Source of the DNA: a virus
Lineage: Duplodnaviria > Caudoviricetes
DNA: 64,000 nt
IMG/VR virus record: IMGVR_UViG_3300021511_000006
Span: 18,562 to 82,561 of that record
Strand: one strand, 5' to 3'
How positions within the stretch are numbered: position 1 is the stretch's first letter; each line of letters opens with the position of its first letter. This document shows, piece after piece, positions 15,618 through 50,704 of the stretch. A program made the translations under genes and the position numbers. Below the pieces are notes generated by a model, which was not told the origin of the DNA, made no database searches, and saw only the letters and a program-made list of their open reading frames with translations.

Positions 15618-18600
15618 TTACCTTATATTACATCTAGTTACATCTTGTGCGAATCCATGTCCAGAACTAAATGGGCCCGCGCCGCCACCACCACCAGAGG
15701 AAGTGGACATTTGATTGCTATTCGATGAAGCTACTACATTTGTGTTCATCATTATAGCAGCTGTAGTTTGTTTACTTCCTGTATCTACTTTTTCACCCAG
15801 TTGTTTAGAAAGTTCATTATAACCTCTTTTTCTTGATTCTTGATCTAAAGCAAACCTTTTTGTTTCAGTATCCATATAGTTTTCAAGTGCGTTATTTCTT
15901 CTAGTACTCACACTCTGAACTACGGATGAAGGATCAAATCCTTTTGGTACTGGTACTGGTTTAGGTACTGTACTTGCTGGTTCATTTAAAGCAGATTCTA
16001 ATTTACTTGCTAAAGTTCCTTCATGAATATCTTTAACCGTGCTCATAACTTTCTTAAAAATAGCACCAATTATTGGAAGGTTAGATACTTTTTCAATAAA
16101 TTTGTCTTTTAGATATGTATATGCTTTTTTCATACCAACTATTGGGAACATCATATTGTAAAGAACTACTTTTACAGTTTTTGATATTTTATCCAATAGA
16201 TCACTACCAAACATATTTTTTAGTTTTTTACCAATCCATACGAATGGCATTTTGATATATCCAAAAATAGTGGCCATAGTACCTCCAATCCATTTCATTG
16301 CTGATTGTACAAGACCAGGTTTTTCCCACCATGTTTTAAAACTTTCCCATACTTTTCCAAGAGTCATTTTAAAACCCCATTTCATTAATACCCATGCACT
16401 TTTTAAGCCTTCTTTTAACATTTTATATGGGAAGATAACAATATTCCATACACCTTTTACCATATCTTTTATAGCACCAAAAGTTTTGGACATACCTTCA
16501 GATATTTTCTTTCCACCAACGAAACCGAGAATACCCCCTGCTGCTGCTCCAATACCACCACCTATTAATGTACCAATACCTGGAACAATAGATCCAATTG
16601 CTGCTCCAAGAGCACCACCTTTCATGGCTCCATGTGTGGCACCAGCAAAACCGGTGTCTGAACCTCCAAGAAATCCAGCTAGTCCTCTAGTTAAAATACT
16701 TCCTGCAAAACCTTCTGGATCTCTCATTGCTGAAAATGCATCCCACGCTCCCATTGCACCACCAACTAAAAGACCAGCTCCTGCTCCTGCAAGTTTTCCT
16801 CCAAACTTAAGAACCTTTCCTCCGACACCAAGAGCTCGTCCAGCAAGTCCTTTTTTTGCAGCTCCAGTAGCTGCTTTTCCTGCCACCCCTTTAGCTGCTG
16901 CTTTTCCTGCTGCTCCTTTAGCTGCTCGTCCTGCTGCCATTGTTCCAAGTTTCTTTAATCCTAAAAATTGTAGAACGGGTGCTAGAAATCCCAAAAATTT
17001 ATTAATGACACGACCCATCATATTTTGAAGGAATCCTAAAGCAAGGACTATCATATCCCAAGTTTTGCTTCCTAATTTTCTTAGTCTTCTTCGAACTCCT
17101 TTTGTCTCTGAAAGATGTTCTTTTGCAAATTTATTACCTTTCTTTCCAAGATCTTCAAACTTCGCATCAGATTTCTTTCCTTCCTTAAGATCTTTTTCAG
17201 CCATCTCAGCAGTCTTTGAAATATTTTCTGCCATACTTGGAGAATGAGGACCTTCTCTTTCTTCTTGATCTTCTTTAAGTTTGCGTATTTTTTCTAGTTC
17301 AGATACTACAGTATCTTTACCTTGTTCATATTTTGATCTAGCCCATTCCTTTGTTGCACCCCATTTTTCTGTAGCTTCTTGAGGTACGCCCATGCTGCTT
17401 ACGACTCTACCAGGATGTGCAAAACCCCCAAATCCTGTGATACCAGCTTTAGCCATAGACCCTTTATCAAGTTCAAGTTTTTCAACCATTCTATCAAACA
17501 TTTTTTCAGAGAATGATTTTTGTTCCTCTATACCTTTTTCTCCAGTTAAGGCTTCTCGTATTTTATCGAACATTGTATATGTGACTTGTTTTGAAGGTGT
17601 AATTTCCTCACCAACAAGGGCTTCTGCTGCTGCCTTTGTATAGATTATAAGATCATCAATCTTTGGCATTAAGGTTGTATATGTCATTCCTAGTATATTT
17701 GATATTTTTAAAAAGACATTATGTGTTTGTGTTGCGCCCCTAACATCTCCAGCATAACCGCCTCTAACACCAAATAAAAATTTAATTGGGCTAACTATAG
17801 CTGACTTCATAATATCAGAAAATAGAAGCATATTTCTAAATGCTGGATGTTGAATAAGAGTTCTTTGCCATGCAATTCTCATACGAGAAGTCATACCAAT
17901 TAATCCAACTTTTAGTTCAAGAATGGCTCTTAATAATCTTTTTTGATGACCTTCTTGTTTTGTATCTCGAACATTTTGAAATTCTTTTATAAATGTTTGA
18001 ACTATGCTTCCCTGTTGTTCATCTCTTTCTACAACAACAGTTTCTAATTTTACTAAATTTTGAGACATTAATGATAATGTCTTATCTAGTTTCTTTGATA
18101 TATCTGCAGATTTTGCTTCATCAATTTGTTTAAGGAGTTTATCAATTGGAGTAACAACTTCTGCTGCATGAACTTCAACCATTCCTCCTTGTTTAATATA
18201 ACCACCTTCTTGTAGTTTTGGGGCCGCTCCTTCAATAGTCTGTTGAAGCTTTTCTAGATCTGATACTGTTGCTGGTTCTCTTTCCCTTTCTTCTTTTACT
18301 ATATCTTTCCCTTTTTTGAATATGTTAGCAATCCCATGACCAGCTTTTGATAATCCTTCAGACATTGCTGATCCGACTTTATCTTTAATTTTTCTGGCTG
18401 CACCTTGAAAAACATCAGTTTCCATAAATTTTGCAGCGAAGTAACCAAAGAGAGGAGTTGCTCTGGAAAGGGCCATAGCAATAGTGTTAGTTTTATTTAT
18501 ACTAATATCTTCACTAATTGCTTTACCGTATTGACTAATAGCCTGTGTAGTTGCTTTTCCCGTATCAACTGTAATAGTTTTAACACCTGTTGCTAGGGAA

Positions 18601-42764: not shown

Positions 42765-43091
42765 TTACGGTTGTTTCTTTGTATAATATCTTCTCTCTTT
42801 AGTATCCATCCATTCAATCCGATCAAATGGAACTGACCTCCAACCTTTCATATTCAGATCATAAACATGCATAATTTTATTTTTCTGAATAAGTTTCAGG
42901 ATTTTTTCAATGTTTACAGATTTTGGATGGTCTCTTTTTGGAATTTGTTTAAAATCCAAAGTACACTTCATGATACGATTCGAACCATCTTTCTTTGTAA
43001 ATCTTATAATTACTTGCTTCTCATCATATACTTTTTTCCAGAACTGTATGGCACTTACAATTATATTAGTATCTAATTCTTTTTCTGCCAT
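42765..43091 (-). CDS. WYL_2-like SH3-barrel protein
   Basis: IRFTKKDGSNRIMKCTL...VYDLNMKGWRSV. Confidence 0.65.
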   Translation of the reverse strand: MAEKELDTNIIVSAIQFWKKVYDEKQVIIRFTKKDGSNRIMKCTLDFKQIPKRDHPKSVNIEKILKLIQKNKIMHVYDLNMKGWRSVPFDRIEWMDTKERRYYTKKQP

Positions 43092-43094
43092 AGT

Positions 43095-44141
43095 TTAATC
43101 CTCCCGTTTATCTGAGTGAACTAGTGTGCCCACTTCCTTATTTGTTCTATCAAAATATTGACTCATCATTAAGCATGAATGATTACAGAGGTCACAAAGA
43201 CGCTTTTTATCTGTTCTTATTCCAGTTAATACATCACTGGACAAAAGTTGTGGATATGCTGAATCGAATAGATTTTTTATGGTGTTATATGGAGTTATTA
43301 CTCCTTTAATTCTTAAACATAATCTTATTGTTCCATCAGAGTCAATTGTTAAGTTATGTATACCATCCTCAAGCTCGCAGTCAAAATTTGATGGTAATGT
43401 ATCAAACATTCTTGGAATTAAAATATCTTTCATATGAACTAACAATGAATGGTCGTGCATAATATCAAGCAACTGTCCTGCTAAACTTAATGTTGGTTGA
43501 ACTAAAAGATTCTTATCCCTAATATTTGAAAAATCGTAATAGATGTTTTTTGTAATATCTACAAATGTAATATCGCTATATATTTCTTCCTTACTTAAAT
43601 TACAGATAAGTTGGTGTAAGAAATGTTGATTATGTTTCATAACTGTTATTTCAGCTACAACATCTTTAACCAACCCTGCTGCTTGAAGTTCTTTTAATCT
43701 TTGTAATCCTTCAATACTTTTTCTGACTCGATCTTTGTTGAGTTCAGGCTCGTTAAAAATAGGATCAACAGAACTTGTAAAACCTTCTATATGACCTACT
43801 TTATTAAATAGTTTTATCAATGCAGGTTGAACTTCAGGTGTGTTATTACTGATTATTGTATAATATATTTCATTATCATTACAATAATTAATAATGTCTG
43901 CAAGGTCTGGTCTTAATAATGGCTCGCCTCCATAAAAGATATTGAAGACATTTGGATTATGTATTTTTAATTTTCCTAATGTTTCAATAACAACTTCAGT
44001 TGGCATTTCGTTTTTGATATAATGTTTCATATCAGGATAGCAAGAAGGTTTATTTTCATAGTTTCGAACTATACCACAGTAATCACATTTCAAATTGCAC
44101 TTCCTTGTGAGAAGCCAATTTACAATTCTAACTTGACTCAT
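43095..44141 (-). CDS. Radical SAM protein with C-terminal Cys cluster
   Basis: CNLKCDYC, YGGEPLL, C-terminal C..CLRI..CDLCNHSC. Likely start MSQVRI at 44141. Confidence 0.9.
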   Translation of the reverse strand: MSQVRIVNWLLTRKCNLKCDYCGIVRNYENKPSCYPDMKHYIKNEMPTEVVIETLGKLKIHNPNVFNIFYGGEPLLRPDLADIINYCNDNEIYYTIISNNTPEVQPALIKLFNKVGHIEGFTSSVDPIFNEPELNKDRVRKSIEGLQRLKELQAAGLVKDVVAEITVMKHNQHFLHQLICNLSKEEIYSDITFVDITKNIYYDFSNIRDKNLLVQPTLSLAGQLLDIMHDHSLLVHMKDILIPRMFDTLPSNFDCELEDGIHNLTIDSDGTIRLCLRIKGVITPYNTIKNLFDSAYPQLLSSDVLTGIRTDKKRLCDLCNHSCLMMSQYFDRTNKEVGTLVHSDKRED

Positions 44142-44142
44142 A

Positions 44143-44523
44143 TTAATCTCCAGTTTCAAGTAATATCGTTCCGTCATATTCTTCTATAATATCACGAAAT
44201 CTGTCTATTCGATAACAGTCATTTCTGTCTATTCTAGCATAAGCGATAAACTTACCCCTATCTAATATCTCAGCAGCTTCTTTATAACATATTTTATCCA
44301 TATTATAAAAATCGCTAGGAACTCCTCTTGCTTTTGCAATCCAATCGTTTCTTCCTGCTTCGGTAAAATTGATAAGATTTTTTTTATTCTTGAAGAATCT
44401 AAAAGATTCATCATGATGGAATTCGAATTTCTTTTGTATATCTTTCCTCAATGTTTTGTTGCCTAGTTCAATAATGAACATTGTGGACGAGCTATTTGTT
44501 ATAAAATCAAGATTTATTTTCAT
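44143..44523 (-). CDS. TNSS-motif family protein, copy 2
   Basis: MKINLDFITNSSSTMFII. Confidence 0.8.
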   Translation of the reverse strand: MKINLDFITNSSSTMFIIELGNKTLRKDIQKKFEFHHDESFRFFKNKKNLINFTEAGRNDWIAKARGVPSDFYNMDKICYKEAAEILDRGKFIAYARIDRNDCYRIDRFRDIIEEYDGTILLETGD

Positions 44524-44903
44524 TGATTTTCTACCTTCACTACTAATTTTTTAAGCTCCCTTAAGCTTATTGGAGAAACTGTGGTTGCACCCTCTCCATC
44601 AACATCAATCGCTTTTAAAATTAAATCATCTTTTCTTAAGATATCAAATAAAATTAAAGAGTCCCACCCATACGGACCAAGCATAATTTCTTTTCCATCT
44701 TTAAGAAGTTTTCCCTCTTTAATTATCTCGTTTAATGTACATTCAATTTCTTCATTACTTGGCTTTTCAACTTCTATATAATCTTTATATTCTTGTGAAT
44801 GTCTAATTCTATTTATTTCGATATTATAGTCTTCTGGTATAAAGATTATAAAAGCAGAAGATGAACTATTTGTTATAAAATCCATTTTAATTTTCATAAT
44901 CAT
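44520..44903 (-). CDS. TNSS-motif family protein, copy 3
   Basis: MKIKMDFITNSSSSAFII. Confidence 0.8.
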   Translation of the reverse strand: MIMKIKMDFITNSSSSAFIIFIPEDYNIEINRIRHSQEYKDYIEVEKPSNEEIECTLNEIIKEGKLLKDGKEIMLGPYGWDSLILFDILRKDDLILKAIDVDGEGATTVSPISLRELKKLVVKVENQ

Positions 44904-44906
44904 TCC

Positions 44907-47108
44907 TTAGTGCAAAGTCAATATTTCATCAGCTTCAAGTTGATCTTCGTGTCTATGAGAAATCAGATATATTGATTTTCCAAACTTCAGCTTAGATAAA
45001 ACCTTTGATACATATCCAACATTCTCTTCATCTAAAGCATCGAATATTTCATCGAATAATAAGATGTTTATTGATACGTCTTGAATGCTTGCTTGTAAAT
45101 CACCAAGAGTTAAAATTGTAGCAATATCAATAATCCTTGTTTGGCCGCCTGATAATTGAATTCTTGAGTTTGCTCGAGTATGTGTATCAACAACATTAAC
45201 TGAAATTTTATCTCTAAATTCTCCAGCTTTAGTTGCTGCTAATGTATCAAATGATACAATATATCGCCCGTTTGTAAGTTTGTCTAAGTAATAAGAAACC
45301 TTTTCATTCATAAATGGAATCGCTTCATCAATTAACATTGATGGAATTCCAGATGAAGAAAATGCCATTTTCCAAAAATCTAATATTGTTTGTCTTCTCT
45401 TAAGAACTTGTAAATCTATATCAGCTTTTTCAATTTGAATCTTAAGAACTTTTTGTCTTTTTAGATATGAATTCAGTTGAGTTTTGTCGTACTCCTCATT
45501 TTCTTTATCCTGAATCTGAATTCCTCGGATCTTTAGATCATGTTTGATGTTGTCAATTGTTTTTTTCGCTTCATCCAATTGTTCTACAGTATATTCTTGG
45601 TCTTTCTTTTTCGATAACAATACCAACTTCTCAGAATTAAGATCATTATCAATACTTTGTACTTTCTTTTGTACTTTTTGTATTTGTAGTCGTGATAATT
45701 CATCAATCTTTTCAATAGCAACATTCCATCTATTATTGACTTCTTTTAATTGATCCTCTTCTTGTTGTTTTATCTGTTTGTGTTCTTCTCGAAAAGTTAC
45801 TTGTTGTGCGTTAATACTATTTGATTCTTTTGTATATACAGCATTATTCTCATTAATTTGTTCTTGAAATGAAGAAACTAACTTAAATGCATTGTCAATG
45901 TCATTATTATATTTTGTGACTTTTTTATTTAATAAGTCAATTGTTTTTTCTGATACTTCTTGTTCACAAAGAGGACATTCGGAAACTTCAGCCTTAATAA
46001 CATTCTCTTCAATTTCATTTATTCGAGTCTGGTAGTTTCTCATATCGGACTCAAGATTTTGACTTTTCAATTCAATTTTGTGATTTTCTTCTTGAGTTGA
46101 AGTATTTAAATTATTTAATAAATCTTTTAATTTTGATTGTTCATCCTGAATACGATCATATTCTTTTTGGGATAAAATATGTATAATATTTTTTGCCTCA
46201 ACTGCTTTATTTTGTATTTCAAGAAGTTTAGTTTCTCGTTGTTGTTCTATAGATTGAACTTGACTATCTAAATCACTTTCCATGGAATTTAACTTTGATT
46301 CAATATTTGATAATTCCGATATTGTTTTCTCAATATCTATATCTTCTTTCTCCATACCCACTAAATTTTCTTCCCATTGATTTAATAATCTTTGGTTTGA
46401 CTCGATAGATTTTTTCAGTTCTAATATAGCATTTTGTTTTTCTGTATCGAATCTTTTTTCTGCAGCAAGTAATATTTGAATCTGTTGTCTCGCATCAGTT
46501 TGTAGTCCAAGATCAATTCCTTTATTTCTTTCAACTCCAGAAATAGATTCTATAACTTGCTTTAGTCGCTTGTCAGTTTCTTTATAAAATAATTGATACT
46601 GTTCTAATGCTAAAAGTTCTCGAAAGATTAACTTTTTATCAGAATCAAGTAAATCTGTAAAGAAGTTTTTAACCTTTTGACCAAACATTAATGTATTCGT
46701 AAATGCTCTTCTTGAACATACTAATTTTTCAATTTCGGGTAATACTTCTTTATGACCTTTTTTAATATCAACACCATTTTTATTTAAAATCACTGTATTG
46801 CCAAGTTTTGTATATTTTTGGTATCGAGTGACAAGATATTGATTGTCATTATCCATAAACTTAACCCACGTTTTACAGTTACGACCAATTACATTATTTA
46901 CTACATCATCTCCTTTTGCTCCCTTACTTGTTAAACCCCAGAAGGTAAAAGGGATGGCATCGAGGGCCATAGTTTTTCCTATCCCATTTGGGCCAGTTAT
47001 TAATGTTAAAGAGTCATTTTTAAATTGTAAAATCATTGGATCAATATAAGGACCAAAATTTTCCATTCCCACTTCTTGAATATTGATTTGCCTCATATTA
47101 TACCTCAC
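44907..47108 (-). CDS. SbcC/Rad50/gp46-like SMC ATPase
   Basis: GPNGIGKT Walker A, Q-loop, CPLC zinc hook within coiled coil, LSGGQ signature, LLFDEIF, SH. Confidence 0.95.
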   Translation of the reverse strand: MRYNMRQINIQEVGMENFGPYIDPMILQFKNDSLTLITGPNGIGKTMALDAIPFTFWGLTSKGAKGDDVVNNVIGRNCKTWVKFMDNDNQYLVTRYQKYTKLGNTVILNKNGVDIKKGHKEVLPEIEKLVCSRRAFTNTLMFGQKVKNFFTDLLDSDKKLIFRELLALEQYQLFYKETDKRLKQVIESISGVERNKGIDLGLQTDARQQIQILLAAEKRFDTEKQNAILELKKSIESNQRLLNQWEENLVGMEKEDIDIEKTISELSNIESKLNSMESDLDSQVQSIEQQRETKLLEIQNKAVEAKNIIHILSQKEYDRIQDEQSKLKDLLNNLNTSTQEENHKIELKSQNLESDMRNYQTRINEIEENVIKAEVSECPLCEQEVSEKTIDLLNKKVTKYNNDIDNAFKLVSSFQEQINENNAVYTKESNSINAQQVTFREEHKQIKQQEEDQLKEVNNRWNVAIEKIDELSRLQIQKVQKKVQSIDNDLNSEKLVLLSKKKDQEYTVEQLDEAKKTIDNIKHDLKIRGIQIQDKENEEYDKTQLNSYLKRQKVLKIQIEKADIDLQVLKRRQTILDFWKMAFSSSGIPSMLIDEAIPFMNEKVSYYLDKLTNGRYIVSFDTLAATKAGEFRDKISVNVVDTHTRANSRIQLSGGQTRIIDIATILTLGDLQASIQDVSINILLFDEIFDALDEENVGYVSKVLSKLKFGKSIYLISHRHEDQLEADEILTLH

Positions 47109-48114
47109 AATTCTGAATTATATCAAATGCTTCTTTGGTATACTCATCTACATCTATTTGTGGAATCTCTTTGATCTTAACAAACCGATTAATTCTATCT
47201 TCCTGAGACATTGAACTTGTAATCCCTCTATCAGTAATATCGGCTTCTGTTTTATCAACAATATTAAAGTCATCCTTAAAACCTGTTATATCGACTTTTT
47301 CCTTCATAAGAACTTTGACATGATGGCCATCATCCTTAGCTTGTTGGGCAGCTTTTAACGCGTCATCTTTATTAAGACTATTCATTTCAATTTCAATATA
47401 TTTTCTATATTGAATTATCGGAATTTCATCAACTTGAAGAGTATCTGTATCGACAACCAGAAAGCGTTTTTCTTCCCCTTTCTCGCCCCAATCTAATTGA
47501 ATTAGGGAACCAACATAATAGATTTTAATATCATCTCTTATAATTTGTTGAGGTTTATGATAATGTCCTAACAGTACCAATTCATATCTTCCAATTAAAT
47601 CTTTTATTCCAATGTCAGAAACGATACTTATCCCTGAATTTAATACTCCTTCATTTAATCCAAAATGAGATATAAGTATCCTTCCCTTATTTTGTTTGAC
47701 TTGATTTACAATATCATAAGAATATGGGATACATATTAAATCATTATCTACAGTTTGAAATTGAGTTACCCATTCAACATTAATATAATTCCTTATTGGT
47801 CTTAGTGCTGATATTGCATCTGCTCCCTTTCCAGATAAGTCATGATTCCCATCAAGTACCCAAAATTCTAAATCTTCATATTGTTCAAAGAAATCTAACA
47901 TTATCTCTTGAGCAATTGCATAGATGATTGATTTGTTGTGATAAAGATCACCGCCTATTATGATTCTTTTAATATCATTTTCACAACAATAATCTCCTAC
48001 TTCACAAAGAGCTCTTTTTATACTATGCAATCGCTCAGGAAGATTTGTTTCATCTTCAATTTTATCTTGACTATATCTCGAAAGATGAAGGTCTGCAATA
48101 AATGCGAATTTCAT
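47098..48114 (-). CDS. SbcD/Mre11/gp47-like metallophosphoesterase nuclease
   Basis: ADLH, GGDLYH, GNHD, SHF, GHYH. Confidence 0.95.
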   Translation of the reverse strand: MKFAFIADLHLSRYSQDKIEDETNLPERLHSIKRALCEVGDYCCENDIKRIIIGGDLYHNKSIIYAIAQEIMLDFFEQYEDLEFWVLDGNHDLSGKGADAISALRPIRNYINVEWVTQFQTVDNDLICIPYSYDIVNQVKQNKGRILISHFGLNEGVLNSGISIVSDIGIKDLIGRYELVLLGHYHKPQQIIRDDIKIYYVGSLIQLDWGEKGEEKRFLVVDTDTLQVDEIPIIQYRKYIEIEMNSLNKDDALKAAQQAKDDGHHVKVLMKEKVDITGFKDDFNIVDKTEADITDRGITSSMSQEDRINRFVKIKEIPQIDVDEYTKEAFDIIQNCEV

Positions 48115-48347
48115 AATTTATTCATTTCTCCTTTTTGTTTAGTAACCTCCTTTTGTTTCGGAGGAGTCGTAGCTTTTTCATCTACTTTTTCTTCTTGTGT
48201 TGTAGTTTGTGGTTGTTTACTATCAGAATCTGACTTTGCAAGAAAGAGTCCAAACAGAAGAATCATTATAATACCAGTTATTGCTAAACCAAATAGCAAG
48301 TCAACTAATTCAAAACCTTTTTGATTATTTATCTTTTTAAGAAACAT
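48111..48347 (-). CDS. Mini-protein with variant type IV prepilin signal
   Basis: NNQKG|FELVDLLFGLAITGIIMILLF followed by a short charged tail. Paralog of 48359-48601. Confidence 0.65.
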   Translation of the reverse strand: MFLKKINNQKGFELVDLLFGLAITGIIMILLFGLFLAKSDSDSKQPQTTTQEEKVDEKATTPPKQKEVTKQKGEMNKL

Positions 48348-48358
48348 TTTATTCTCCT

Positions 48359-48601
48359 TTACAGCTGATTCATTTTACCATCTGATTTAGTAATCTCCGG
48401 TTGTTTTGGCGGACTTGGAGCTTTTTCATCTACTACTTTTTCTTCCTGTTGTGTTATAATTTTTATATTATTTTCTGACTTTGTAGTCATCGAATAAAAA
48501 TGTGGAACTACAATTGCTATCAAAATAGCAATTATTGATATAGCGACCATTAACTCAAGCAAAGTAAAACCTTTTTGATTATTTATTCTTTGAAGTATCA
48601 T
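48359..48601 (-). CDS. Mini-protein with canonical type IV prepilin cleavage/methylation signal
   Basis: NNQKG|FTLLELMVAISIIAILIAIVVP. Likely start MILQR at 48601. Confidence 0.8.
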   Translation of the reverse strand: MILQRINNQKGFTLLELMVAISIIAILIAIVVPHFYSMTTKSENNIKIITQQEEKVVDEKAPSPPKQPEITKSDGKMNQL

Positions 48602-49016
48602 TTTTATCATTTCTTTGTATAGATTTAAACATAGATAAAACATCCATATTATTAATTAACATATTTTCAATGATTTCTTCTTTCACACCTTGTATAATAT
48701 TATTTCCTTCTCCATTCATTTCGAGAGATGCTAAAATAAACTTATGTTCGTTGCATAGATCAAGTATGGAATTATATATGGTAAAGTGAACTCCATCTGT
48801 TCCATACGTCCAAAGATTATCACCTTTTTTTAAAGATGCTATACAGTCATATATTTCATCAAATGCTTCTGCTTCTTTAGCCTCTTCATATGTCTCATCA
48901 TAATTATTATTTATATATGTTTTTATTTCGTCTTCATTTATATGGAAGCTATTTGGTACCATAACAACAAAGGCAGTTGATGAACTATTTGTAACAAAAT
49001 CAGATTTAATTTTCAT
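48579..49016 (-). CDS. TNSS-motif family protein, copy 4
   Basis: MKIKSDFVTNSSSTAFVV. Confidence 0.8.
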   Translation of the reverse strand: MKIKSDFVTNSSSTAFVVMVPNSFHINEDEIKTYINNNYDETYEEAKEAEAFDEIYDCIASLKKGDNLWTYGTDGVHFTIYNSILDLCNEHKFILASLEMNGEGNNIIQGVKEEIIENMLINNMDVLSMFKSIQRNDKNDTSKNK

Positions 49017-49306
49017 TAGTCATAACATCCTTTATATTCTATATGATCTTCATTTATTCCGATCTCTAATAAAAACCATAACATATCAAAGTTATCCATT
49101 CCTGTATCACCCATAATTAAATCACCCGTTTCACTTATACCCCAACCACTATGATCTGGAGTATACTCCAAAGATTTAGGATGATATTGTTTACAAAATT
49201 CATGATGATTTTGAATAAGAAGAATTTGAATGTTGGATAAGTTTCTTTTTTCAATAATGAAACTAGCACATGAACTGTTAGTTACAAAATCCGTTTTAAT
49301 TTTCAT
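49016..49306 (-). CDS. TNSS-motif family protein, copy 5
   Basis: MKIKTDFVTNSSCASFII. Start at 49306, TAATG-coupled to copy 6. Confidence 0.8.
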   Translation of the reverse strand: MKIKTDFVTNSSCASFIIEKRNLSNIQILLIQNHHEFCKQYHPKSLEYTPDHSGWGISETGDLIMGDTGMDNFDMLWFLLEIGINEDHIEYKGCYD

Positions 49307-49674
49307 TACCGATTTTCCCAACATTCTTCAATATGCCCTGGTTCACTTTCTATTCCAAAACAATCCATAATCTGTTGTTGAACTCTTGTTTTAAATTCAT
49401 TTAATGTTTCATCATCTTTCATTTTGGTATATTCAATACCAACTATTAATCCATCATAATCATAATCAGGACCGGATGTAGAAGTGAGATCGCTTCCCTC
49501 AGTAAAAATATCAGCTTCATAGTTGAATGCTTCTTGAAGATCTATATCTTCTCCTTCTTTTTCTTTAACCTTTTGAATAATATTTTCTGGTACATCATCT
49601 AACTTTATATGAGTTCCAATAACTACAAATGATGATGAACTACTGTTGGTCACAAAATCCATTTTAATTTTCAT
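49306..49674 (-). CDS. TNSS-motif family protein, copy 6
   Basis: MKIKMDFVTNSSSSSFVV. Confidence 0.8.
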   Translation of the reverse strand: MKIKMDFVTNSSSSSFVVIGTHIKLDDVPENIIQKVKEKEGEDIDLQEAFNYEADIFTEGSDLTSTSGPDYDYDGLIVGIEYTKMKDDETLNEFKTRVQQQIMDCFGIESEPGHIEECWENR

Positions 49675-49693: not shown

Positions 49694-50704
49694 TTATTTA
49701 CAAACTAGTTTTGCTAAATTACCAGTTGAATGTTTACTACCAGTTGGGTGCCCATATTTGTAATGGCATTTTGCGCAAACAGATATTGCATAATCTGGGT
49801 CTAAAGCAAAGAATGGTTCTAATTTTTGTGGTCGTAAATGATGAACTATAGTTGCATGTTCACCACAATAGTGACAAATTTCACTATCTCGTTTTAAGAC
49901 AAACTGATTTAAAGTATTAAGTTCAGCTGAAGTATGGGGTTTATCGGTATCTGTATATGGGTCGTTTTGTAATCCATATAATGGGCAAACTTCTTTACAT
50001 TTCTGGCAACAATAGAAATAACTACCGTCATTTCCATCTTGTTTTTCTAATTGATTTTTTCTACATTGTATTTGCATTAATGTAGGAGTAAACCATCCAC
50101 CTTTTTCTTTTGAATTTTTACAATTGTGATTTTTACAGTGAACCTGAATTTCTTTGGATTTATCTGGATTGTATCTCATTTCTTCAACTTTTGAGAAAAA
50201 TGGGTATTTTTCTTTTATAGTGTCAATGGATAGTTTACTACTAATTCTCATATTACTTATTGTTTTGATAGAGAAACATGCTTTTTTATTTTTATTCCAT
50301 GGGGTTCGACCTTTATTTTTAGAACTTATATTTTTTAGTTGTTCCTTTGTTAAATAATTTTTTTTGCCTTTGTTCCATGGAATATTTCCTTTGTTCGCAT
50401 TGCTCTTTTTCTTTCTTGTTTCTTTAGAATCTTTCCATGTTTTTCCATAATTTGGATTTAACGGTCCTTTTAAAACATTGCTCTTTTTCTTTCTTGTTTC
50501 TTTAGAATCTTTTCTATCCATGGCATAATTTTTTAATATCTCTTTTGTTTTAAGTGTATGTTTTTTTGAAAAGAATGGATTATTTTTATCTGATATTTTT
50601 TTTCGTTGATTTGGGCATTGTCTATAGTGTTTATTGCAACACTGCTTCCCATTTTTAAATTGATATTTAGCTTTTTTTCCGCAACCATAGTTACATAATT
50701 CCAT
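49694..50704 (-). CDS. HNH homing endonuclease with NUMOD3-like repeats
   Basis: CHYCG..VHHLRP..VCAKCH, KDSKETRKKKSN twice, PWNKG/PWNKN motifs. Confidence 0.85.
   Translation of the reverse strand: MELCNYGCGKKAKYQFKNGKQCCNKHYRQCPNQRKKISDKNNPFFSKKHTLKTKEILKNYAMDRKDSKETRKKKSNVLKGPLNPNYGKTWKDSKETRKKKSNANKGNIPWNKGKKNYLTKEQLKNISSKNKGRTPWNKNKKACFSIKTISNMRISSKLSIDTIKEKYPFFSKVEEMRYNPDKSKEIQVHCKNHNCKNSKEKGGWFTPTLMQIQCRKNQLEKQDGNDGSYFYCCQKCKEVCPLYGLQNDPYTDTDKPHTSAELNTLNQFVLKRDSEICHYCGEHATIVHHLRPQKLEPFFALDPDYAISVCAKCHYKYGHPTGSKHSTGNLAKLVCK
50398..50512. repeat. Perfect 37-bp direct repeat (two copies, 50398-50434 and 50476-50512)
   Basis: CATTGCTCTTTTTCTTTCTTGTTTCTTTAGAATCTTT twice, encoding the duplicated NUMOD3-like KDSKETRKKKSN. 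Confidence 0.85.

Follow-up and report, generated by a model that had tools for sequence, protein, structure and literature searches.

The mini-pilin genes and their products

The subject of this analysis is a pair of small adjacent genes in a 64,000-nucleotide stretch of viral DNA (positions 18,562 to 82,561 of IMG/VR record IMGVR_UViG_3300021511_000006, Caudoviricetes; hereafter the window). Lying on the minus strand at 48111-48601, they encode proteins that resemble type IV prepilins in their N-terminal signal and lack the globular head of a pilin, and which are referred to below as mini-pilins. The window is AT-rich (~31% G+C) and carries the phage genes for a large terminase (TerL), baseplate and tail proteins, a two-subunit RNA polymerase, topoisomerase II and an SbcC/SbcD pair. 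The closest cultured relative of TerL is only 31% identical and comes from a Flavobacterium phage, while SbcD shares at most 28% identity with any cultured phage, so that by these searches the phage appears to be far from all cultured phages; it is of the jumbo type and belongs to an uncultivated clade. A host guess from the closest pilin N-termini was dropped as uninformative. At the DNA level, blastn with 8 kb around the locus gave zero matches in 50,697 phage records. Nor did tblastn with two family members find a match in this collection, probably due to low-complexity masking.

Mini-pilin A (P0001; 48359..48601, minus strand) has 80 residues, and an alternative ATG at 48610 leads to the 83-residue product called in public data. 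Its prepilin traits are complete, i.e. a short basic leader (11 residues), Gly at the last leader position (G-1), Phe at the first mature position (F+1), Glu at +5 and a hydrophobic stretch, arranged as NNQKG/FTLLELMVAISII (the slash marks the predicted cleavage site, G/FTLLE). Both signal models are exceeded: PF07963 (N_methyl) at 42 bits (E 5e-11, cut-off 21.2) and TIGR02532 at 35.7 bits (cut-off 16.3). The mature N-terminus has F1, E5, A14 and P22, a combination that marks the alpha-1 helices of type IVa pilins. Mini-pilin B (P0002; 48111..48347, minus strand; 78 residues) is a diverged paralog (41% identity, E 2e-22 in BLASTP) which retains the leader, G-1, F+1 and tail (NNQKG/FELVDLLFG). 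Positions +2, +5 and +22 have changed to Glu, Asp and Gly (T2E, E5D, P22G) and the hydrophobic helix is rewritten, and the protein falls below the cut-offs of both models, the PF07963 search giving no match. The tails end in GKMNQL (copy A) and GEMNKL (copy B). An earlier reading of this DNA, made without database searches (the sequence-only reading), had described tandem paralogs of ~80 residues, with a canonical signal in the first and E5 changed to Asp in the second, all of which agrees with these results, and the motifs and tail ends that it quoted are exact.

The same reading had held that a globular pilin domain is missing. An AlphaFold2 model of copy A (6-sequence alignment) consists of a single helix at residues 14-59 followed by a disordered tail (61-80, predicted local distance difference test (pLDDT) <50), with no globular head domain predicted. 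Neither copy contains a cysteine, where a type IVa head would have a disulfide-bonded D-region, and all pilin equivalog models align with no more than the first ~35 residues, with scores far under their cut-offs. The description as phage-encoded prepilin-type proteins without a pilin head is supported.

The two copies have not diverged evenly: 8 of 11 positions are identical in the leader, 6 of 26 in the hydrophobic helix, 3 of 13 in the linker and 21 of 32 in the tail. What selection has preserved in copy B is the tail along with the cleavage site, rather than the helix, and the tail, which in comparison with the membrane helix is the best-conserved part between the paralogs, is not mere filler.

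Both open reading frames are genuine genes and not chance occurrences, since full-length homologs are found in at least 84 clusters at 50% identity; in public metagenomes, homologs of copy A occur at 100%, 93% and 65% identity. Direct reading of the sequence shows a Shine-Dalgarno element for copy B, AAGGAG (48354..48359, minus strand), 6 nt 5' of its ATG and overlapping the stop codon of copy A. The constant downstream neighbour is the gene for the phage SbcD/Mre11-like nuclease (47098..48114, minus strand; Metallophos; phrog_100, E 1e-40), the start of which overlaps the stop of copy B by 4 nt. The constant upstream neighbour (48579..49016, minus strand) encodes a 145-residue protein of a family named here after its motif DFVTNSSS; the 3' end of this gene runs 23-32 nt into the start of mini-pilin A. 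No terminator-like site interrupts this gene run.

A phage family at a constant address

A profile search over 1.84 billion representatives gave 109 matches at E <= 1e-10, and ~84 of the best 150 matches are 65-90 residues long and aligned across the whole profile, which sets the family size at 84 or more clusters at 50% identity. Among the 84 representatives, F+1 is present in all, G-1 in 78 (Ala in the remaining 6), T+2 in 80, E+5 in 82 and P+22 in 70, counts that are partly circular for G-1, F+1 and E+5 because the profile or regular expression used for selection contains these positions. Ala or Gly occupies position 14 in 56 of the 84, and 78 of them match TIGR02532 at E <= 0.001. The leader mostly has 11 residues (consensus M-L-L-Q-K-I/L-N-N-R-K-G) and otherwise 6-7, with an overall range of 5-13. 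The conserved N-terminal positions are followed by a variable polar linker, the motif (I/V)-(T/D)-Q-E-(E/Q)-E at the predicted helix end, a stretch rich in E, K, Q and P, and the C-terminus K-G-(D/E)-x-N-K-L, within which Lys at -2 is found in 65/84 and Gly at -6 in 49/84. Aromatic residues are scarce in the tails (0.4% Phe, 0.4% Tyr). An independent set chosen by synteny (n=18; position beside SbcD plus a regular expression limited to the N-terminus) agrees with this, with Leu as the last residue in 17 cases. In distant members, only a generic acidic stretch with a final KL is left of the tail. Two variants stand somewhat apart. In L039 (3317-3490) a 57-residue copy with a prepilin N-terminus occupies the usual position without the conserved tail or C-terminal Leu, possibly as a decaying or tail-less variant. 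In L061 (1050-1523) the mini-pilin is in frame with an upstream Cys-rich small open reading frame (157-residue open frame), either as a fusion or through an upstream in-frame start, the mini-pilin part beginning at an internal Met right before R-N-R-G/FTLIE.

In what was searched, the family is restricted to phage contigs. When the family alignment was compared with genome contigs, no clear full-length cellular homolog was present among the matches listed; the cellular matches listed are N-terminal only (~residues 2-45, some to ~60) and belong to ordinary pilins of many phyla, while four weak matches of ~29-33% (L126, L139, L165, L172) reach residue 75-76 and extend into the tail. Against the PDB, the family profile scores best with Geobacter PilA-N (E 1e-19), followed by PilA from Myxococcus, Pseudomonas and Thermus (1e-11 to 1e-13) and by GspG of the type II secretion system (1.5e-7), a preference for type IVa major pilins over GspG.

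The gene order is the same in all contexts retrieved: a QueD-like PTPS gene, a ResIII/DEAD helicase, one to five DFVTNSSS genes (the last of ~145 residues), the mini-pilin and SbcD, continued 3' of SbcD by SbcC, one or more DFITNSSS genes, a radical SAM/SPASM gene and WYL_2. The mini-pilin and SbcD overlap by 4 nt in each context. The distribution was assessed in 78 IMG/VR loci found via SbcD and sorted by identity to the SbcD of the window. A mini-pilin lies directly upstream of SbcD in 14 of the 18 loci with at least 60% identity, in 4 of the 19 with 50-60% and in none of the 41 below 50%, in many of which the helicase abuts SbcD. L014, whose SbcD is 74% identical, is a close relative without a mini-pilin. 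From this distribution it follows that the mini-pilin is an accessory gene, patchily kept in one clade, with a constant slot when it is present. Two copies occur only in this phage (the near-identical contigs L002 and L003 carry the same pair), the other loci examined having one, so that the tandem pair represents a local duplication and the single copy is the norm. This norm, the fixed slot upstream of SbcD in one jumbo-phage clade and the conservation of the tail had been missed by the sequence-only reading.

In each of four related records (82-248 kb, 26-79% complete) there is a single N_methyl open reading frame, and neither Peptidase_A24 nor a credible T2SSE ATPase was found in these four; host machinery would therefore be needed for any processing, which implies that the host possesses type IV pili, a type II secretion system or the Com machinery. 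The hosts of this phage clade are likewise suggested to carry a prepilin peptidase. Of 14 long related jumbo-phage records, 10 have exactly one prepilin-like open reading frame, in the form of a mini-pilin, a 44-residue stub, a protein of 105-135 residues with a small Cys-containing domain, or one of 267 residues, and this recurrent selection suggests a piliated host. In more remote jumbo phages that share the SbcD lineage, other prepilin-like proteins have 135 residues (L181, L182), 44 residues (a stub, L183), 105-131 residues (L184, L185, L059, L060), 97 residues (L035) or 267 residues (L008, L186). Some forms carry a small two-Cys C-terminal domain, and in the 267-residue form GFTLIE is located mid-protein, preceded by a transmembrane segment and a coiled coil.

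Candidate functions

We propose with moderate confidence that the mini-pilins are 'headless' type IVa-pilin-like proteins that disturb or remodel the pili of the host and thereby probably exclude pilus-dependent phages. That G-1, F+1, E+5 and P+22 are conserved across the family points to an engagement of the prepilin peptidase and pilus machinery of the host. In genuine pilins, methylation and assembly depend on E5, and the alpha-1 helix has its kink at P22, as reported by Strom and Lory in 1991 and for later pilus structures. A plain membrane anchor would give neither a buried Glu nor a helix-breaking Pro a reason to persist. The conservation of E5 and P22 argues for a continued need of the helix to pass as a pilin.

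In the proposed mechanism, the protein would be inserted into the inner membrane of the host, N-terminus inward and tail outward, after which the host prepilin peptidase (PilD) would cut copy A, and probably copy B, after Gly-1. The mature protein of ~69 residues, i.e. a pilin alpha-1 helix with a disordered acidic and lysine-rich tail of ~20-30 residues, would then enter the inner-membrane pilin pool. Through the retained F1, E5, A/G14 and P22 it could dock on PilD, the PilC platform, filament subunits or PilS-type kinases, and with the head domain absent the type IV pili, or the pseudopili of the type II secretion system or Com machinery, would be disturbed or remodelled. Possible routes are poisoning or capping of the filament, occupation of PilD or the PilC platform, and repression of pilin transcription via a PilS-type sensor, which is said (from work of Kilmury and Burrows in 2016) to read the conserved pilin N-terminus in the membrane. 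In this proposal the conserved tail, with (I/V)TQE(E/Q)E and K-G-x-x-N-K-L, is an additional functional element, which would be exposed in the periplasm or on the filament. The likeliest benefit would be that further pilus-dependent phages, own progeny included, are kept off the infected cell. The sequence-only reading had suggested dominant-negative pilin mimics that would jam type IV pili or the type II secretion system, or titrate PilD, and so bring about superinfection exclusion; this mechanism is plausible, and it agrees with the suggestion published for truncated phage PilA (PMC12952977).

Several points weigh against this proposal. Copy B is without E5 and P22, and simple decoy or poison-subunit models leave the conservation of the tail and the C-terminal Leu unexplained. 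The mini-pilin is translationally coupled to SbcD within a DNA-metabolism block, outside any recognisable host-takeover or moron island. The closest cultured TerL, that of the Flavobacterium phage at 31%, is too distant to show that the host has type IV pili; the conservation counts carry the circularity mentioned above, and the support as a whole comes from sequence and structure prediction.

The conserved tail is also the starting point of another explanation, namely that the tail is the working part, and that the prepilin signal only delivers to the periplasm, and anchors there, a conserved peptide that ends in K-G-x-M-N-K-L and has a free carboxylate on its Leu. Its targets could then be other than the pilus fibre, such as a secretin, a cell-wall enzyme or a PDZ-type domain in a periplasmic protease or in GspC of the type II secretion system. 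This explanation is kept because a pure decoy model does not account for the conserved tail, and it fits the conservation of tail (21/32) and leader (8/11) rather than helix (6/26) between the paralogs, the Leu end in 17/18 synteny-only copies, the Lys at -2 (65/84) and Gly at -6 (49/84), and the predicted disorder of the tail, which would make it accessible. However, a mere anchor would not need conserved E+5 and P+22, the tail decays in distant members to the acidic stretch ending in KL, any partner of the tail is hypothetical and the PDZ idea is pure inference, which makes the explanation as a whole rather unlikely.

Quite a speculative possibility, to which we assign a low probability, is that the mini-pilins form a new class of phage effector, which hijacks the prepilin pathway of the host for delivery. 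The PilD-cleaved alpha-1 helix would then be no more than a tether or a means of entering the pilus or pseudopilus, and the tail, with its free K-G-x-M-N-K-L end, would be the active ligand for a specific periplasmic or surface target, perhaps together with the co-conserved DFVTNSSS proteins, which share a disordered N-terminal tag.

A small protein with one transmembrane helix and a charged C-terminus also meets the loose description of a holin, and the tight coupling to genes of cytoplasmic DNA metabolism could be read in favour of a generic phage membrane protein (holin- or antiholin-like, a depolariser, or an anchor for the DFVTNSSS or SbcCD proteins) whose likeness to prepilins is meaningless. 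That the cleavage-site residues and the charged E+5 are near-invariant across sequences of ~30% identity makes this improbable, as does the lack of an adjoining endolysin or spanin gene, and the patchy presence in the clade argues against an essential role in lysis or replication. Finally, it is very improbable that the protein is the pro-peptide of a Phr/AimP-like phage communication signal (an export signal, a charged pro-region and a released C-terminal peptide), even though its signal, charged spacer and conserved C-terminal 6-7 residues recall such pro-peptides and one member weakly matches the NCBIfam PhrA peptide model (E 6e-5), because the signal is of class III and not Sec type I (so that the mature protein would be retained in the membrane), the gene is flanked in every case by a DFVTNSSS gene and SbcD with no adjacent receptor-like (TPR) gene, and the C-terminal peptide is conserved among close relatives instead of being diversified.

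Known systems and neighbouring genes

Returning to the proposed headless pilin mimic, the nearest parallels are two kinds of phage protein. Prophage-encoded P-FimU, a full-size minor pilin, replaces the host FimU and blocks pilus-dependent phages, as proven experimentally (Cell Rep 2026, PMC12952977). For a truncated P-PilA (the N-terminal ~60 residues) of six virulent Pseudomonas phages, superinfection exclusion has been proposed and is untested, the idea being that either pili without a phage-binding surface are made or assembly is blocked (PMC12952977). The mini-pilins resemble P-PilA in being phage-encoded pilin mimics with only the N-terminal helix and without pilus machinery of their own (the P-PilA phages being virulent or non-temperate), and they share the phage context (TerL, multisubunit RNA polymerase, baseplate), a mature length of ~69 residues and the absence of a head. 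They differ from P-PilA in their extra conserved hydrophilic tail (with the K-G-x-x-N-K-L end), as well as in their fixed slot upstream of SbcD in uncultivated jumbo-type phages. The tblastn comparison of two family members with the 50,697 phage records gave no link to the P-PilA proteins, probably due to the masking mentioned above.

Among cellular proteins of similar size, the closest is Geobacter PilA-N ('geopilin domain 1', GSU1496; PDB 2m7g, 6vk9, 7tgg, 9egp), a naturally headless type IVa pilin with ~61 mature residues and an alpha-1 helix, which is also the best-scoring solved structure for the profile (positions 2-45). The likeness ends at about residue 45, i.e. it covers only the first ~55%, and PilA-N is a cellular protein from a pil locus with an aromatic-rich C-terminal part and its partner PilA-C encoded downstream. 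A PilA-C-like gene was not seen downstream of the mini-pilin in any context examined, SbcD being there in each.

Tip and Aqs1 are phage inhibitors of type IV pili. Together with Zip and PfsE (the latter a tiny inner-membrane protein of Pf4), for which see PMC12378983 and bioRxiv 10.1101/2024.03.05.583538, they resemble the mini-pilins in being phage proteins that switch off type IV pili against pilus-dependent phages. They bind PilC, PilZ or PilB and come from temperate or filamentous phages, and none is known to be a pilin mimic. Tandem duplication of viral pilin genes is found in the haloarchaeal provirus SNJ2, whose pilins are assembled by host PilB/PilC; unlike the mini-pilins, they are full-size, archaeal, encoded by a temperate virus and build dominant pili (PMC12426801).

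Prepilin-like phage proteins, including some of 59-72 positions, are already catalogued in PHROG: phrog_27437, 11263, 11596, 13280, 10597 and phrog_3433 ('pilin') are each matched by 68-81 of the 84 members over the N-terminal ~35 residues. None of the PHROG profiles covers the tail, and all six except phrog_3433 are annotated as 'unknown function'. Other assignments were considered and rejected. The major pseudopilin GspG reaches only 32 bits with TIGR01710, where 88.85 are needed, over the N-terminal 36 residues (E 1.5e-7 with GspG in the PDB). Flp/Tad (type IVc) pilins need G/xxxxEY and a long leader, instead of the G/FT(L)(I)E and the leader of 5-13 residues found here. A full type IVa major pilin (PilA/PilE) would share the alpha-1 helix traits and have the alpha-beta head, which is absent.

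Phage pilin mimics are known, and headless ones have been in print since 2026, so that the general idea is not new and the value of the present analysis is incremental. What is new is the delimited family with its conserved tail and C-terminal Leu, its fixed slot upstream of SbcD beside DFVTNSSS genes in one uncultivated jumbo-phage clade, and a natural tandem paralog in which the cleavage site and tail are kept and E5 and P22 are lost. Phage-made pilin mimics are a newly recognised form of host-surface manipulation, full-size P-FimU being the sole one tested. The cleavage site, E5, P22, the tail motif, the near-invariant Leu and the natural paralog lacking E5 and P22 provide ready-made mutants and controls, with which poisoning, capping and masking of type IV pili, and signalling through them, may be told apart as possible actions of headless pilins.

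The gene block around the mini-pilins contains a complete accessory cassette between the helicase/HNH genes and SbcD, in which the 145-residue DFVTNSSS gene is preceded by two further paralogs (49306-49674 and 49016-49324, together 49016..49674, minus strand); the cassette is found likewise in L004, L005 and L013. DFVTNSSS genes flank SbcCD throughout the phage clade, and in the window five genes on the minus strand (49306-49674, 49016-49324, 48579-49016, 44520-44903 and 44143-44523) encode otherwise dissimilar small proteins with only the N-terminal tag M-K-I-K-x-D-F-(V/I)-T-N-S-S-S in common. In 15 orthologs of the 145-residue member, T9, N10, S11, S12 and S13 are invariant. The AlphaFold2 model of this protein has a pLDDT of 80.6 and a predicted template modelling score of 0.71, with residues 1-11, to which the start of the motif belongs, left unplaced; as the rest folds well while the conserved N-terminus stays unplaced, the model suggests that the motif is a shared linear tag rather than a fold element. 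Searches with this neighbour against Pfam, PADLOC, PHROG, Atlas, Foldseek-PDB and VIA-align wide yielded no usable match (best Z 4.3), and a literature search for the motif returned nothing.

Two of the DFVTNSSS members precede the radical SAM/SPASM gene (43095-44177), which, with the subsequent WYL_2 gene (Sm-like SH3), makes up the region 42765-44177 of the window, a pair conserved 3' of SbcC in the clade, L011 and L012 included. Between the helicase and the DFVTNSSS cassette lies an HNH/NUMOD3 homing-endonuclease-like gene (49694-50704, minus strand), and in L093 (4257-5261) a NUMOD3 gene is found between SbcD and SbcC instead, which suggests that mobile endonucleases hop within the block.

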